Origin: Candidatus Thorarchaeota archaeon
Lineage (GTDB): Archaea; Asgardarchaeota; Thorarchaeia; Thorarchaeales; Thorarchaeaceae
Length of the DNA: 18,856 nt
Assembly (NCBI GenBank): GCA_048882485.1
Contig: JBHLRP010000058.1
Span: 1 to 18,856, forward strand
Direction: 5' to 3'
The notes beneath the pieces are model-generated. The model made no database searches, had not been told where the DNA came from, and saw nothing but the letters and a program-made list of their open reading frames with translations. Position numbers and translations under genes: made by a program. Shown in pieces: positions 4,237 to 18,695 of this stretch (position 1 is its first letter; the number at the start of each line of letters is the position of its first letter).

Positions 4237-4333
4237 ACTCCTAAGATTATAACGAATATCCTACATTTCATGGGAGTTCGCCTTGATAATCTACCCATGA
4301 TCTATATCAAGAAAATATGACTAAAGAAGGAAG

Positions 4334-4476
4334 TGGCGCTGAGGGAGAGATTCCCAACTCTCATGGAAATCATGAGAATCTTTGAACTCTCGAGTGCATA
4401 GCACACTGGATGTTTGCAGGACTGCTAATAGCTGCCTATAGCAATCCAGCTCCATACCAGGCTTGGATACCTCAGC
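4334..4476 (-). tRNA. trnS: tRNA-Ser(GCT), encoded CCA, two introns (37/38 at 4412-4438; 59/60 at 4351-4380)
   Basis: Acceptor GCTGAGG/CCTCAGC, discriminator G, CCA. D-stem TCCA/TGGA. Anticodon stem CTGGA/TCCAG with GCT at 4442-4440. Long variable arm GTGC-TAT-GCAC. T-stem GAGAG/CTCTC with spliced loop TTCAAAT. Both introns form bulge-helix-bulge motifs. Confidence 0.95.
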
Positions 4477-4502
4477 TTATTTTCCTGCGAATCTCAGTTT
4501 TC

Positions 4503-4518
4503 TCTTAAACATTGTCGT
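4503..4518 (-). promoter_or_regulatory. BRE-TATA promoter of tRNA-Ser
   Basis: Minus strand CGACAATG-TTTAAG about 30 nt upstream of tRNA position 1. Confidence 0.7.
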
Positions 4519-4593
4519 AGTTCCTAGATTACTCAGATTGAAGGGGGCATCAGGTCTAGGTCATGGAGCATATAGCATTCGAGCATTTCTGCA

Positions 4594-5882: not shown

Positions 5883-5943
5883 AGGCTTGGATACCTCAGC
5901 TTATTTTCCTGCGAATCTCAGTTTTCTCTTAAACGTTGTCGTA
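5883..5943 (-). repeat. Direct repeat of the tRNA-Ser promoter plus first 18 nt of the tRNA
   Basis: 60/61 identical to 4459-4519 (single difference, 4511 a vs 5935 g). Confidence 0.95.
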
Positions 5944-5969: not shown

Positions 5970-6285
5970 TGCAGCGGCCCCTTGACCTCGAGCGTCCTTC
6001 TCCTCAGTGCTATCAATCACCTTCCTCAGAGCAGCACCCTCTGAGGCTCCACCACTCCACCTTAGAGCTGTTCCCGCCAGGGCCTGACTCGGTTCGGTAG
6101 TTTATGCCAATCACAGCAATCCTACAAATGCTGCTATGGCAGTGACAGACTTCAGAGACCACCCGTCGCCGTCCAGTGAAAGGACACGTGAGTGTCCGGG
6201 TTCGTCCTCCGTTTCGGTTACTGGTTCCAGCTATTGCCATACCGGTTACAGGTCGCGGCAAACGACCCAACCCTACCCGCTGCGG
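5970..6285 (-). ncRNA. ffs: Archaeal SRP (7S) RNA
   Basis: Helix 1 GCAGCGG/CCGCTGC. Alu domain with helix 3 GGTCG/CGACC, a UGUAA motif, helix 4, and complementary loops TTGCCG/TGGCAA. Helix 6 has a GUAG loop. Helix 8 reads GAGT-CAGG-CCC-TGGC-GGG-AACA-GCTC. Length ~315 nt. Confidence 0.9.
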
Positions 6286-8169: not shown

Positions 8170-9466
8170 GTTTATATCATTTTGCAAAGGCATTCTTCGA
8201 CGCCTTTCGCGGCATACTTGTTTTCTTACGTTGTGAATATATGCGAAGGTACATACTCACTAACATGTGGAGAACCTACCGCTATCGAATGTATCCCAAC
8301 AAACGACAGTGGGAGTTAATCCGACAGAATATTGATGCTTGTCGATTCGTCTTTAATTGGGCGCTGGAGCACAAGAAAAGAACTTACGAGGGTGAGGGGA
8401 AATCCCTCTCTTGGTTTGATTTGAATAATATGCTTCGTGAATTAAAGACTGAAGAGCCCTGGCTCAAAGATGCATATTCACAATCGCTCCAAATGGCCAT
8501 TAGACGTGTCGATCTTGCATTCAAGCACTTCTATAGAAGAGTAAAGAATGGTGAGAAACCAGGATTTCCGAAATTTAAGTCCAAGAGAAATCTATCGCAA
8601 TCATTTGATATTCCTCAGTTTTTTGTAGTGGAATTCTCCAAAAAACGAGTAAAAGTACCGAAAATTGGCTACATTAAGACTGTATTTCATCGGGAATATA
8701 CGGGAAAGACTAGGCAAGCTGTAATTAAAATCGAAAAGTCTGGAAGAGTCTTCATCAACATCTTTGTCGAACTAAACGTCGAGCTCCCTGGACCATACAA
8801 AGTAAACAGAGAAAATACAGTTGGCTTGGATTTAGGCATAGCCAGTTACGCAATATCATCAAATGGTGAGAAGATAGACAATCCAAAGTATCTCGAAGAT
8901 TCTCTGCAACGGCTGATAGTTCTACAACGAAGGCTTAGCCGTAAGAAGAAAGGGTCCCATAACCATGAAAAGGCAAGGCGGCAAGTTGCCAAGCTCCATA
9001 ATCGAATTAGGAACCAGCGTCGTGATTTCCAACACAAGCTATCTACTAGAATGGTGTGCGAGAACCAAGGCATCGTAGTGGAAAGTTTGAATGTTTCTGG
9101 AATGATAAGAAATCCGAAACTCTCCAAAAGAATAGCTGATGCCGGATGGGCTGCTTTCATTATGATGTTGGAATATAAATGCAGATGCAGTGGTGTAGCG
9201 TTCATAAGAGTCGGACGGTTCGAGCCCACGTCAAAACTATGTAGCAATTGTGGTAATAAGAATGTCAACCTAGCACTTTCAGATCGCACGTGGACATGCC
9301 CTGCGTGTAAAACTGCACATGATAGAGATCACAATGCAGCTCTGAATATCAAACGATTAGGATTAGGAATTGATACACCCCAGGAACTGGGGGAAGAGCC
9401 TGTGGACCTGTCCCTTTGGGAAGGGTTGAAACAGGAAGCAGTTGACCTAGGTTAGCAGCAGTTCAC
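8170..9466 (+). mobile_element. IS200/IS605-family solo-tnpB element (IS1341-like, no tnpA)
   Basis: Candidate TAM TTGAT at 8165-8169, left-end hairpin GCAAAGGC/GCCTTTCGC at 8184-8210, and right end GAAGC-hairpin-GCAGTTCAC ending at 9466. The left boundary is uncertain. Confidence 0.75.
8265..9455 (+). CDS. tnpB: RNA-guided endonuclease TnpB
   Basis: N-terminal 'TYRYRMYP' HTH region, GFPKFK, RuvC-I VGLDLG, RuvC-II VVESL, zinc finger CSNC/CPAC, RuvC-III DRDHNAALNI. The D-E-D triad is intact. Confidence 0.96.
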   Translation: MWRTYRYRMYPNKRQWELIRQNIDACRFVFNWALEHKKRTYEGEGKSLSWFDLNNMLRELKTEEPWLKDAYSQSLQMAIRRVDLAFKHFYRRVKNGEKPGFPKFKSKRNLSQSFDIPQFFVVEFSKKRVKVPKIGYIKTVFHREYTGKTRQAVIKIEKSGRVFINIFVELNVELPGPYKVNRENTVGLDLGIASYAISSNGEKIDNPKYLEDSLQRLIVLQRRLSRKKKGSHNHEKARRQVAKLHNRIRNQRRDFQHKLSTRMVCENQGIVVESLNVSGMIRNPKLSKRIADAGWAAFIMMLEYKCRCSGVAFIRVGRFEPTSKLCSNCGNKNVNLALSDRTWTCPACKTAHDRDHNAALNIKRLGLGIDTPQELGEEPVDLSLWEGLKQEAVDLG

Positions 9467-12420: not shown

Positions 12421-12918
12421 ATGACCCGATATGTCAAGGTCGCTCTCATGGGCTCTGGTTTCGCAGGCAAGTCCACCCTGATCAAGCTTCTTACTGATGG
12501 CACACAGAAGCTAAAGGTGAACTATCAACCAACAGCAGGGATGGATTGCGGAACAATCACTCTTGACAGTAATACCAAGGTTTCACTAGTCGAGATGGGT
12601 GGCCAGTCTCATTTTGAGTTCATGTGGGCAGATTTGATGAGGGGCAGTACAATGGTGGTATTGGTCACTGAAAGCAATCCTAAGGCTGTACTCAAGACCC
12701 GCCAGCTTCTCCACAAATACAAGGACAAGTTCAATGGAGCTCGCGTGATTGCCATAGCGAATAAGCAGGATGTTCCAGGGTCCATGAGGCCGGAGTCGGT
12801 AGAGGATCTGCTTGGAGTACCAACATACGGAATGGTGGCAATCGACCCCAAACAGCGTATCCATGGATACAAGCTAATTGTCAACGGTCTAAGAGACATG
12901 ATTCGTGTGGCTGCATAA
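12421..12918 (+). CDS. Ras-superfamily (Arf/Rab-like) small GTPase
   Basis: G1 GSGFAGKS, G2 YQPTAG, G3-like EMGGQ, G4 NKQD; 165 aa. Confidence 0.88.
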   Translation: MTRYVKVALMGSGFAGKSTLIKLLTDGTQKLKVNYQPTAGMDCGTITLDSNTKVSLVEMGGQSHFEFMWADLMRGSTMVVLVTESNPKAVLKTRQLLHKYKDKFNGARVIAIANKQDVPGSMRPESVEDLLGVPTYGMVAIDPKQRIHGYKLIVNGLRDMIRVAA

Positions 12919-15156: not shown

Positions 15157-15372
15157 ATGATAATTCCAATTCGATGTTTTACGTGTGGAAAACTAGTAGC
15201 TGACAAGTATGAGCAGTTCAAGCGCCAAGTTCGCCAAGGAGAAGACCCAGCGGCGGTCCTAGATAGCCTAGGGCTTCATAGGTATTGCTGCAGAAGAATG
15301 CTGTTGTCTCATATTGATATCATTGATAGCTTCATGGCATTCGCTACAACAGAGGTTGTGGAGGGTAAATAG
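15157..15372 (+). CDS. rpoN: DNA-directed RNA polymerase subunit N (Rpo10)
   Basis: [12 protein letters not shown]...[11 protein letters not shown]. Confidence 0.98.
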
Positions 15373-15373
15373 G

Positions 15374-15427
15374 ATGAGTGAAACAGAGATTCCTGAAGCC
15401 GAGCTCTTGACACCAATGGACAAGTAG
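15374..15427 (+). pseudogene. rps2: Truncated 5' stub of rps2 (17 codons)
   Basis: MSETEIPEAELLTPMDK* vs MSEIETSDVELLTPMDKY at 18060 (12/17 identical). Starts 1 nt after the rpoN stop. Confidence 0.88.
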
Positions 15428-15546
15428 CTCGGCAATTCATACCTGAAGAGTGCCTGTCGCAGTCAATCTGACTTGAACAGATGCGGTTTTTCTTCCTTGT
15501 ATGCACAAGAGGATTGAGAATCTCGATGGTCAATCATGACATTGAA

Positions 15547-16224
15547 TCAGCTCCGCTTATCAATCACACAAAACACGCTTGAGTTGTCAACCTCAATGAC
15601 CCTTGATTCTATGCCCATCTGCATAGTCAGGTCCTCAAACCTGCTTGGATTGAAAGTCGCAGCACGAAAACCATCCTCACAGACAATCACTCCATTACCT
15701 GTGGCTTCCCAATCTATCTTACCTATGAGTCCATAGGAGGACTGAAGTCTAAACCATTCCAGTCTATCCTCCCAGAATTTGTCAGAATAGCTTGAGAACA
15801 GGCACATACCGCCAGGACTGGTCACTCGTAGACTCTCTTTAACAAGAGTATGAGGATCTACCTTGAATGCCGAGATTCCATTTTGTATACAAACAACAAT
15901 GTCGAAGCAATTCCCTCTCAGACCTAGTGTGGCTGCATTCATTTGAAAGAGATCGCAGTTGCGCTCTGATTCCAACAGCAAATTAGCCATCCTCAGGCTC
16001 TCCAAGGATGTATCAATGCCAACAACATGTTTAGAACACGGACTCATCTGACTCAACACCCTTCCATATCCGCAACCTAGTTCCAACACAGAATGGTGTG
16101 GCTCCACATAGCTGAGGACATACTGGATCTCAGCATCTAGATATTGCTTGACTCTGGGCGGTGCAATATCGTAGCATCTCTTCAATCTCTCGGCAGAGAG
16201 TCTGGCGGAATAATACTCTTTCAT
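15547..16224 (-). CDS. Class I SAM-dependent methyltransferase
   Basis: Motif I VLELGCGYGR, VVGIDTS, FDIVVC, RVTSPGG. Confidence 0.9.
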   Translation of the reverse strand: MKEYYSARLSAERLKRCYDIAPPRVKQYLDAEIQYVLSYVEPHHSVLELGCGYGRVLSQMSPCSKHVVGIDTSLESLRMANLLLESERNCDLFQMNAATLGLRGNCFDIVVCIQNGISAFKVDPHTLVKESLRVTSPGGMCLFSSYSDKFWEDRLEWFRLQSSYGLIGKIDWEATGNGVIVCEDGFRAATFNPSRFEDLTMQMGIESRVIEVDNSSVFCVIDKRS

Positions 16225-16324
16225 CAGTGATCTGCACTACATTTCTTCTGTCTAAGTTCTACTCTCTCAATCGTTGCTTATTAGTTCAATCAGAATAACG
16301 AGGACTTTGCTTATAGTTTTGCTA

Positions 16325-16820
16325 AGTGGGCGAGAAGCTGCCCAACAAACTCCAGTGTCTTGAGGCAGTGTGTCTACGAAACACAGAGGTATGTCAGAAA
16401 CACCTACCAGTGCAACTTTCAGGTCGAAACATTGATTATCGAGGTATGTGAACGAATGCAACTAGCCGCGTGGTCGGCTTATTTCGAGAACGCTAAGGAG
16501 GAAGGCACTGCCACATGCAGACGCAATCGATTATCCTTCAGGCTGGTGCAGAGTGGACCTCTTCTGCCCCCTACCCCCACCCACCAGTAGGTGTTTACCA
16601 TACGTCTTTTCCGCGTCTGGAGTTCCCACATGGATTTGAGTATCCCCACACGACAACATCTACATCTGAGGCAAATCTGGGTCTGTCCTTGGCATAAAGA
16701 CAGGTTGAATTAAAGAACGCCACGCGGCGCCTTTCCCGAAGAAGGGTAAGGCATCGACCTGAATGACCACCCTTCCACAATCCTATTGAGAGATATGAAT
16801 GCCACTGCCTAAAACATCAT
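16325..16820 (-). ncRNA. Candidate large structured RNA of unknown class
   Basis: Four long-range helices of 8-15 bp, many local hairpins, G-U pairs favouring the minus strand, upstream TTTAAA at 16842-16847, and no credible ORF. Confidence 0.5.
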
Positions 16821-16907
16821 AATGACTACTATTGTAATCTCTTTAAACGGGCTGCCAGAGTGGTCAGGATAATGACATTCCTCACGGTGCTCTCGGAAGA
16901 ACGCCAT

Positions 16908-17795
16908 TCATACTCCACTTCTTCTTCTGTATTGCACCGCAACAGCTGCGATAACCACTACCCCAGCAAGTCCGACTACCGGTGTCACGACACCCATCAT
17001 TTCTACTTCACCAGAGTGTGAAGTACCCATCCAATTTGGATCTACCGGGACACCTCCGGTCAAATCTACAGCGATGGTCCATGCATCTCGAATAATTCCT
17101 GCACTCTCTGACACATCAAAGATGAGTTGGGCAGACCATTCAGCATCGAAATGTGTGAAGTTGACCCCAATTGTCATGACCGCTGGTCCGAGGACAAGGA
17201 ATTCATCGTTTTCGAAACACAGTGTCATGTCATCATATTGAAGCACATATCCAGCATGGGACAATTGTGACATATTGTCAATCCAAATCGGACCCACATA
17301 TTGACTCTCCTTCGAATGGATGTCCCATGCAATATCTGGATAGTCGGGATTGTTCGTGATACAATCTGGCTCTTCTTCGATTAGGTGGTCGAATAGCTTT
17401 TCCGCTCCCAAGTAAGCAAAGGAGTACTCGCGTCTCTGACCGTAACTGATTCCTCCTACTGGGACTGCATCTCCACCATTTGTCACCTGAATGAATTGCT
17501 GTTCATACCCAATGCCATATGACTCCCCCAAGTCCATGAATTCGAAACTGATCGTTGCATTTACATTGGTACCTGCGATCTCGTCATCGATGATGATGCT
17601 CACACTAGCTGCAGGTAGTAAGCTTTCTGCGCCCCTACTGACACGAAAACTGGCAGACGCCTCACGAGTAGCGTCAGTTGAGTCTGCTGCAACCCCATCT
17701 GGCAAGCAACTCCAGAGAGAACCGAATAATAATAGGGTGAATATTACCACAGCGATTTGACTTATTCTGCACCACATCTTCAAAGGTGCATGCAC
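16908..17795 (-). CDS. Secreted, C-terminally membrane-anchored acidic protein
   Basis: N-terminal signal-like helix ending in VAA-D, an acidic body, and a C-terminal TM followed by YRRRS. Confidence 0.72.
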   Translation of the reverse strand: MHAPLKMWCRISQIAVVIFTLLLFGSLWSCLPDGVAADSTDATREASASFRVSRGAESLLPAASVSIIIDDEIAGTNVNATISFEFMDLGESYGIGYEQQFIQVTNGGDAVPVGGISYGQRREYSFAYLGAEKLFDHLIEEEPDCITNNPDYPDIAWDIHSKESQYVGPIWIDNMSQLSHAGYVLQYDDMTLCFENDEFLVLGPAVMTIGVNFTHFDAEWSAQLIFDVSESAGIIRDAWTIAVDLTGGVPVDPNWMGTSHSGEVEMMGVVTPVVGLAGVVVIAAVAVQYRRRSGV

Positions 17796-17936
17796 CTCAC
17801 ATCATAATGAGCTTCATCCCTAATAGCATATCTGGCCACATCTGGATGATTGATGCAAGACTGCAAGTGCAAGACTAAAAGGTAAAAGGAGTTCTAGGAA
17901 GAAGAAGCATCCTAAGGGAAATTTCTGATGCCTTGT

Positions 17937-17951
17937 CGAAATGGTTTTAAG
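17937..17951 (+). promoter_or_regulatory. Likely BRE-TATA promoter for the intact rps2
   Basis: CGAAATGG-TTTTAAG about 110 nt upstream of the ATG, with SD GGAGG before the start. Confidence 0.5.
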
Positions 17952-18059
17952 CATCACTCAAGGGTTTCGACAAAGCTCAGTTCAATACATAGTATCATGG
18001 AGTCCATTCGATTTGATATCTGGTGACAATTCTGGCAAAAACTGTGGAGGAGCAATCGA

Positions 18060-18695
18060 ATGAGTGAAATTGAGACATCTGACGTAGAGCTGCTCACGCC
18101 TATGGACAAATATTTGGCCGCAGGATGCCATATCGGGACGCAGGTGAAGACGCAAGATATGGATTTCTTCGTGTATCGGCAGCGCCCAATCGGACTCTAC
18201 GTCCTAGATGTGAGAAAGACTGACGAGCGAATCAGAACCGCTGGCAAGTTTATCGCCCGGTTTGATTCCTCCAAGATAGTTGTGGTGTCAGGTCGTGTTT
18301 ACGGAAAGCGTCCTGTAGAAACATTTGCATATTACATTGGGGCGAATGCCTTTACTGAACGATTTGTACCAGGGACACTCACAAATCCTAATATTGCTGG
18401 TCCTAGGGTGTATGTAGAGCCTGAGCTCGTTATTCTCACTGACCCTCGTACAGACCAGCAGGCCCTATCCGAGGCGGCAAGGATTGGCGTACCAGTGATA
18501 GCACTGTGTGATACTGACAATCAGACAACCAATGTGGACCTCGTGATTCCGTCGAACAACAGAGGTCGTAAAGCACTGGCGCTGGTCTATTTCCTGCTCA
18601 CACGTCAGGTGTTGCGAGAACGCGGTGCCCTAACAGAGGAGGAGGAAACCGCATTTACAGCTGAGGACTTCGAGCCTCAGGTCCAACGGTTCTAG
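18060..18695 (+). CDS. rps2: 30S ribosomal protein S2
   Basis: YLAAGCHIGT, RFVPGTLTNP, IALCDTD, IPSNNRGRKALAL. Confidence 0.97.
   Translation: MSEIETSDVELLTPMDKYLAAGCHIGTQVKTQDMDFFVYRQRPIGLYVLDVRKTDERIRTAGKFIARFDSSKIVVVSGRVYGKRPVETFAYYIGANAFTERFVPGTLTNPNIAGPRVYVEPELVILTDPRTDQQALSEAARIGVPVIALCDTDNQTTNVDLVIPSNNRGRKALALVYFLLTRQVLRERGALTEEEETAFTAEDFEPQVQRF

Follow-up and report, generated by a model that had tools for sequence, protein, structure and literature searches.

Between two genes of a polymorphic islet at rps2 in a Candidatus Thorarchaeota genome lies a stretch of DNA that an initial annotation described as a candidate structured RNA of ~490 nt, folded through four long-range pseudoknots and encoded on the minus strand at 16325-16820. 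Is there such an element, where does it begin and end, which strand would be read, and what might the product do? The window, by which we mean the whole stretch of DNA analysed, is a contig of 18,856 nucleotides (C58 of host genome G000, which is 90% complete), and where relatives of its genes are named, they belong to Candidatus Thorarchaeota. The islet measures 2.7 kb, and another run joins 15424 to 18111 (the empty site, at a depth of 42). Its framework is as follows.

15357-15426, plus strand: rps2 start stub, left boundary of the islet, 73% identical to 18043-18112
15547-16224, minus strand: class I SAM-dependent methyltransferase, neighbouring cassette gene
16908-17795, minus strand: membrane-anchored protein with no Pfam family, a separate cassette
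18043-18112, plus strand: working rps2 start, right boundary of the islet, with the empty site seen

In other strains the rps2 site is filled differently, with, for example, 1003 bases of other sequence between 15691 and 17877, and locus L134 carries five other genes there.

The complementarities reported in the initial annotation are present: the four long-range helices pair at 8 of 8, 8 of 8, 13 of 15 (15 of 15 when G-U pairs on the minus strand are counted) and 10 of 10 positions, and the positions given for the TTTAAA box and the local hairpins are likewise correct. The stretch holds five Watson-Crick helices of at least 8 bp, against 1.3 in dinucleotide shuffles (P = 0.015). Among real 496-nt windows of the host genome, 3.8% reach the same count of five and 0.8% contain two helices of at least 10 bp, and the single sequence folds no better than shuffles on either strand (z = -0.57 and -0.72). 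With 3.8% of genomic windows matching the helix count and no unusual folding energy on either strand, the sequence taken alone makes a weak case, and the count is unremarkable for a stretch picked from 19 kb. It is comparative evidence that, on our reading of the sequences, makes the element real.

Eight full copies, that of the window included, were recovered in four lineages (64-95% identical), besides fragments; identity is 64-86% between and within distant lineages and ~95% within the window's own lineage. Two of the copies are paralogues on contig C34 of G000 (66%), two (L026 and L027) come from a metagenome assembly, and three (L133, L134 and L136) lie on contigs of methyltransferase relatives, while the partial copies comprise a piece at a contig end in G002, a 70-nt piece in G015 and a possible 30-nt remnant in G084. 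Model searches of 87 genomes of the class found the element only in G000, G002 and G015, plus weak matches; those in G019 and G079 were rejected as coding sequence. It was not found by model searches of 151 Asgard genomes sampled across the phylum, nor in the plasmids and phages searched, and pattern scans of viral and genome contigs returned only chance matches, as checked with profiles. Rfam gave no match at E values up to 10, and nothing near a cut-off for the window or for five homologue loci. In the literature searched, coverage of which is incomplete, neither the element nor these Thorarchaeota cassette arrays turned up, and the element appears to be undescribed there. What the annotation had proposed in outline, an unclassified, conserved, non-coding and probably structured element in a polymorphic rps2 islet, is supported: a few members of the Thorarchaeota (Asgard archaea) carry a conserved non-coding element of ~320 bases within small swappable gene cassettes.

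Its extent, and probably its strand, differ from those first proposed. On the right, contigs from three other studies and L134, L136, G002 and L009 track the window only to 16735-16741. On the left, methyltransferase relatives that lack the element diverge at 16314-16323, so that the module starts at 16324 in the window lineage and the original end at 16325 was sensible. In G007 the surface-protein gene matches at 92% identity as far as 16854, with different sequence beyond, and since the other relatives part at 16735-16741, the interval 16742-16853 is a private flank. The conserved unit is 16416-16732, and the enclosing module in the window lineage is 16324-16735.

16324-16415, no strand assigned: remainder of the module in the window lineage, conserved as well as the core and ending at hairpin 16325-16345
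16416-16464, plus strand: upstream block with two short palindromes, conserved in all copies; candidate BRE/TATA promoter and short leader
16465-16732, plus strand: proposed mature RNA, 268 nt here and 249-274 nt in homologues, opening with the closing helix and finishing at the CCA-end position; predicted strand and ends
16742-16853, no strand assigned: flank common to no relative, outside the element

The length of ~490 nt was thus an overestimate. Two of the helix partners (16754-16763 and 16803-16810) fall in the flank that relatives lack, and these helices have no equivalents that we could find in other copies; the hairpin at 16741-16775, the proposed start at 16820 and the TTTAAA box also lie outside the conserved unit, and the box is not significant as a promoter (p = 0.08). 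The flank contains the region's best promoter-like sites, directed toward the plus strand (16774, 16807 and 16831), and is possibly the remnant of a lost cassette.

Within the window's lineage the core diverges from L134 and L136 by 3.5-4.4%, compared with 7% for the methyltransferase next door and 12% for its third codon positions, a comparison that recombination could blur. Judged by these values, which put the element at about one third of the rate at neighbouring third codon positions, purifying selection on it is shown. This selection does not look like that on a protein: the variable columns have no codon periodicity, indels among the copies are mostly not multiples of three, no shared reading frame was found, and a short minus-strand peptide frame that looked synonymous was rejected when it failed the periodicity test. 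We therefore regard it as very improbable that the element is a relic, whether of a protein gene that has decayed or of a tRNA-Phe attachment repeat that has eroded and pairs by chance. Such a relic would fit the near-zero single-sequence z, the 95-codon open frame in one copy, the fragments in G015 and possibly G084, and the duplicated tRNA-Phe 3' ends in the host genome; it fits poorly with divergence below that of third codon positions, and no copy adjoins tRNA-Phe, while in every copy the tRNA-like 3' arm described below is matched by a 5' arm at a distance of 250 nt.

We found a marked strand asymmetry in the consensus fold. Against column shuffles the alignment reaches z = -4.41 on the plus strand (0 of 150 shuffles) but only -1.6 on the minus strand, and minus, the strand first proposed, is now the less likely one. 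In the plus-strand fold, which is nested, 94.7% of cells are paired and the variation is mostly compatible with G-U pairing. Its helices, together with one arm of the long helix from the initial annotation, are these.

16465-16474, plus strand: 5' arm of the closing helix, acceptor-like, 10 bp; 49 of 50 cells paired in 5 copies
16719-16732, plus strand: 3' arm of the closing helix (16719-16728) and 4-nt tail, where conservation stops
16492-16499, plus strand: 5' arm of helix H2, 8 bp, pairing with 16686-16693; 40 of 40 cells paired in 5 copies on this strand
16686-16693, plus strand: 3' arm of H2, overlapping hairpin 16681-16703, which pairs well only on the minus strand
16542-16588, plus strand: internal stem-loop (16542-16548 with 16582-16588, and 16552-16556 with 16577-16581), two pairs changed on both sides
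16610-16637, plus strand: small hairpin module (16621-16625 with 16632-16636), with a 26-nt block deletion in L027
16398-16412, no strand assigned: arm of the 15-bp helix with 16582-16596, lineage-specific, with one compensatory pair in L136

The best conserved helix of all is the closing one (16465-16474 with 16719-16728), which had been missed in the initial annotation. H2 lies where the anticodon stem would sit in a tRNA, and one of its pairs is broken in L133. The loop of the internal stem-loop holds an invariant TCTGC and a variable 10-mer. The four-pseudoknot fold, by contrast, is unsupported, although its complementarities exist: besides the two helices lost with the flank, 16348-16355 with 16617-16624 has a mismatch in both close relatives, and 16398-16412 with 16582-16596, though very stable in the window lineage and backed by the change in L136, does not exceed shuffles in any of the three remaining lineages.

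Several features argue for a structured RNA on the plus strand: the sharp conserved ends, the nested fold whose 10-bp closing helix is followed by ACCA, the compensatory pairs in the 16542-16588 stem, the clean deletion of the hairpin module in L027 and, in the 5S arrays, a plus-sense 3' end that faces the repeat at 20-60 nt, like most protein cargo genes. These results need to be read cautiously, however, as with 5 copies 33 of 500 shuffles attain the plus-strand covariation score, a thin formal signal, and covariation tests on these related copies draw on four independent lineages only. Pairing is better on the minus strand for hairpin 16681-16703 and for the 15-bp helix, and this helix extends upstream of the promoter proposed for the plus strand.

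These last observations belong to a second reading, which we consider possible but on balance unlikely: a minus-strand RNA that starts near 16733, runs to ~16325 in the window lineage by read-through from upstream genes, and has its effect in cis, as a pseudoknotted element for processing, stabilisation or switching. An anti-tRNA-Phe site would then make up the first 10 bases of this RNA, as in a T-box-like sensor or a primer-binding site. On this strand the 15-bp helix is fully paired, and hairpin 16681-16703, which G-U pairs and two double changes maintain, replaces and excludes H2, as in a switch, with 90.8% of cells paired; the scores are reached by 3-6 of 500 shuffles with eight related copies, whose relatedness alone can produce such values. 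The upstream genes are co-directional in most copies, but in L134 the upstream gene is divergent, a pyrimidine-rich tract stands just before the element in the 5S arrays, and there is no promoter at a shared upstream position. Alignment folding is weak on this strand, the 15-bp helix is confined to one lineage, the genes that follow vary from copy to copy, and the search of the 90% complete genome turned up no reverse transcriptase.

Own-promoter tests were significant on neither strand. Returning to the plus-strand reading, the block at 16416-16443 holds the best promoter-like site at -38 to -42, offset as in tRNA promoters; this site ranks in the top 0.8% of sites, yet its score is weak in comparison with tRNA promoters (p = 0.27-0.44). 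We infer that transcription would start from this block and run on the plus strand, divergent from the methyltransferase gene.

The plus-strand 3' end resembles that of a tRNA. After the closing helix the tail reads ACCA in six of the eight copies, ACCT in L134 and GCCT in the window, and the last 10 bases equal those of the host tRNA-Phe in 6 of 8 copies (a ten-base match to any tRNA end has a chance of 1.6e-5 per genomic position). The first 6 bases of the proposed RNA are also those of the host tRNA-Phe, a match that follows from the pairing and is not independent of that in the 3' arm. Host tRNA genes encode CCA, as does the tRNA-Sec gene at 8546-8636 of contig C88 in G000, and A73 is present in all copies but one (7 of 8). 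The resemblance does not extend inward: no T-arm, D-loop GG or anticodon arm was found in the copies, the 25-26 nt linker before the acceptor 3' strand has no conserved stem-loop, and over positions 8-30 shuffles come as close to tRNAs as the element does. Unlike host tRNAs, the element has no U-rich terminator after its CCA. ARAGORN, run with introns allowed and a lowered threshold, returned spurious folds only and neither a tRNA nor a tmRNA in the element; several host tRNAs have one or two introns and are misassigned by this program. Charging with phenylalanine requires the GAA anticodon, G20 and A73 (PMC9976931), and charging of the predicted RNA is unlikely because it has no anticodon arm. 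The CCA-adding enzyme, mainly the human one, accepts an acceptor-like stem with a purine discriminator (PMC4477674).

The combination of features calls for comparison with tRNA-Phe, with intron-containing archaeal tRNAs and with tmRNA. With the first two the element shares the end sequences and encoded CCA already described, and a similar spacing from acceptor to next helix; it differs from them by the missing T-loop, D-loop GG and anticodon loop and by having no bulge-helix-bulge at H2, and an intact tRNA-Phe exists elsewhere in the host. The tmRNA (RF00023) has an acceptor stem ending in ACCA, no D-stem and a large domain inserted at the position of the anticodon stem. It is likened to the element by its size class, its ACCA-ended acceptor-like stem, the missing D-stem and the large insert in a helix, the NCCA-ended stem being present on the plus strand of 6 of 8 copies though not in the window copy. 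It differs in that the element lacks the G3-U70 alanine identity (the third pair is C-G in all copies), a T-arm, a conserved tag frame and any ARAGORN or Rfam match, and in that the element's distribution is patchy rather than universal. By these sequence features the element is neither a tRNA nor a tmRNA.

Bacterial YrlA Y RNA and viral tRNA-like structures are similar in being non-coding RNAs that may borrow tRNA features, but they keep T/D-loop or anticodon mimicry where the element shows an acceptor end only, and they have no sequence match to it. Large orphan structured RNAs of the GOLLD, ROOL, OLE, HEARO and raiA types are, like it, hundreds of bases long, accessory in distribution and of unknown function; the element differs from them in being found only in Thorarchaeota-type sequences and in showing, so far, much weaker covariation. 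Archaeal RNase P and SRP RNAs have a terminal closing helix, and a short minus-strand motif resembles the GAGGAA box of RNase P RNA, but the host's own copies lie elsewhere and the element matches neither model: RF00373 (archaeal RNase P RNA) has a single match, at C110, and none at the element. An archaeal SRP RNA stands in the window itself at 5972-6282 on the minus strand (90.3 bits, just below the Rfam cut-off).

Other candidates were rejected. For a group I intron the P, Q, R and S look-alikes are out of order and not conserved, with no Rfam match; a group II intron likewise has no Rfam match, and PF00078 has none in the 90% complete genome. No copy has a tnpB, iscB or tnpA neighbour, as an OMEGA RNA or IS200/IS605 end would, and the element does not match the host tnpB at 8241-9455 (plus strand), a solo IS605-type gene in a genome where no tnpA was found. 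An IS110 bridge RNA was rejected because PF02371 has no match, the same sequence occurs at rps2 and 5S, and there is no target match; a retron msr-msd has no neighbouring reverse transcriptase. A methyltransferase riboswitch was rejected as the element is beside that gene in one of four lineages and the family is mostly without it. Likenesses to the HDV ribozyme, SECIS, box C/D and cobalamin motifs were unconvincing by eye.

All copies lie in Thorarchaeota-type cassette arrays, with unrelated flanks across the four lineages; the arrays are bounded by duplicated ends of rps2, 5S rRNA, uS19 or a RadA-like gene. In G002, L027 and G015 the element follows a duplicated 3' half of 5S rRNA by 20-60 nt (L136 shares the flank of G002), in C34 (twice) and L133 it precedes a duplicated RadA-like gene start by 50-65 nt, in L026 it is ~245 nt from a duplicated uS19 end, and in the window and L134 it occupies the rps2 islet. 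Tandem cassettes of one to three genes were seen in G000 (C14, C34, C63, C85 and C96), L027 and L133, bounded by diverged 35-90 nt copies of 5S rRNA, uS19, tRNA-Phe, rps2 or RadA-like ends; RadA-like gene starts are repeated in L133 and at 2591, 12159 and 13429 of C34, where the long copy is stop-broken.

The initial annotation had the element travelling with the methyltransferase and the surface protein. G007 has the latter at 92% identity without the element; association with the former holds in one lineage (L134 and L136) but not for the family, and six fetched loci of close relatives have the methyltransferase gene with no element beside it. A suggested tie to the mobility of the islet fared no better, as most cassettes lack the element and it does not match target sites. 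One lineage occurs at both rps2 and 5S and no copy matches its own target, and a guide RNA for cassette target sites is rejected on these grounds. Because the methyltransferase family is present in 54 of 87 genomes and the element in three, and because the mobility enzymes sought in the host genome were not found, the element is cargo, and not evidently the engine, of the arrays.

It is rather improbable that the inverted repeats and palindromes function as DNA, whether as a replication, transfer or protein-binding site or as the shell of a mobile but non-autonomous element that promotes cassette circulation. In favour, G-U-friendly changes occur on both strands, genomes hold several copies, flanks switch right at one end, and most copies are at most 250 nt from a duplicated host-gene end. 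Yet most cassettes do without the element, the consensus folding is strongly strand-asymmetric, and no target duplication, matching terminal repeats or clean empty site was seen for the element alone. No copy adjoins a transposase, integrase or reverse transcriptase, and four such families (reverse transcriptase, tyrosine integrase, IS110 and Y1 transposase) were not found in the 90% complete host genome.

The best explanation is that a few Thorarchaeota carry the element as an accessory passenger of their repeat-bounded arrays, where it forms a small RNA gene in its own right. For the fuller proposal, a plus-strand RNA of ~270 nt with a tRNA-like acceptor end that acts in trans, we put the chance at about even. 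The tRNA-Phe-like acceptor end would let host tRNA-processing enzymes define and stabilise the RNA through 5' and 3' trimming and CCA upkeep; it is probably not charged with phenylalanine. The window copy, having lost its encoded CCA, may depend on CCA addition or may be decaying. Least certain is what the RNA would do in trans, where it might mimic an acceptor end, serving tRNA-binding proteins as a decoy or docking scaffold; the putative working part is the 190-nt domain enclosed by H2. It is distinctly improbable that an Asgard RNA of tmRNA-like architecture engages the translation or tRNA-processing machinery in trans and spreads by cassettes, which would be a role so far unknown in archaea.

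Asgard archaea are the closest prokaryotic relatives of eukaryotes, and to our knowledge very few of their non-coding RNAs are known beyond the housekeeping set; nor do we know of any tmRNA-like tRNA mimic in archaea. The element is a candidate RNA family in this group, a 270-nt candidate with predicted ends, strand and helices, a claim bounded by a small homologue set, four lineages, an uncertain strand and prediction of the RNA from DNA. If the proposal is true, RNA genes join protein genes as cargo of the integrase-free cassette arrays in Thorarchaeota.

Other parts of the window show similar arrangements. A 61-nt direct repeat (4459-4519 and 5883-5943, 98%) surrounds a 387-aa gene directly after the SRP RNA and marks another cassette, and a 30-nt direct repeat (1500-1529 and 4323-4352) surrounds a leucine-rich-repeat-like gene of 735 aa and a small gene. 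A small Arf/Roc-like GTPase gene (12421-12918, minus strand) lies beside the RNA polymerase and ribosomal cluster.
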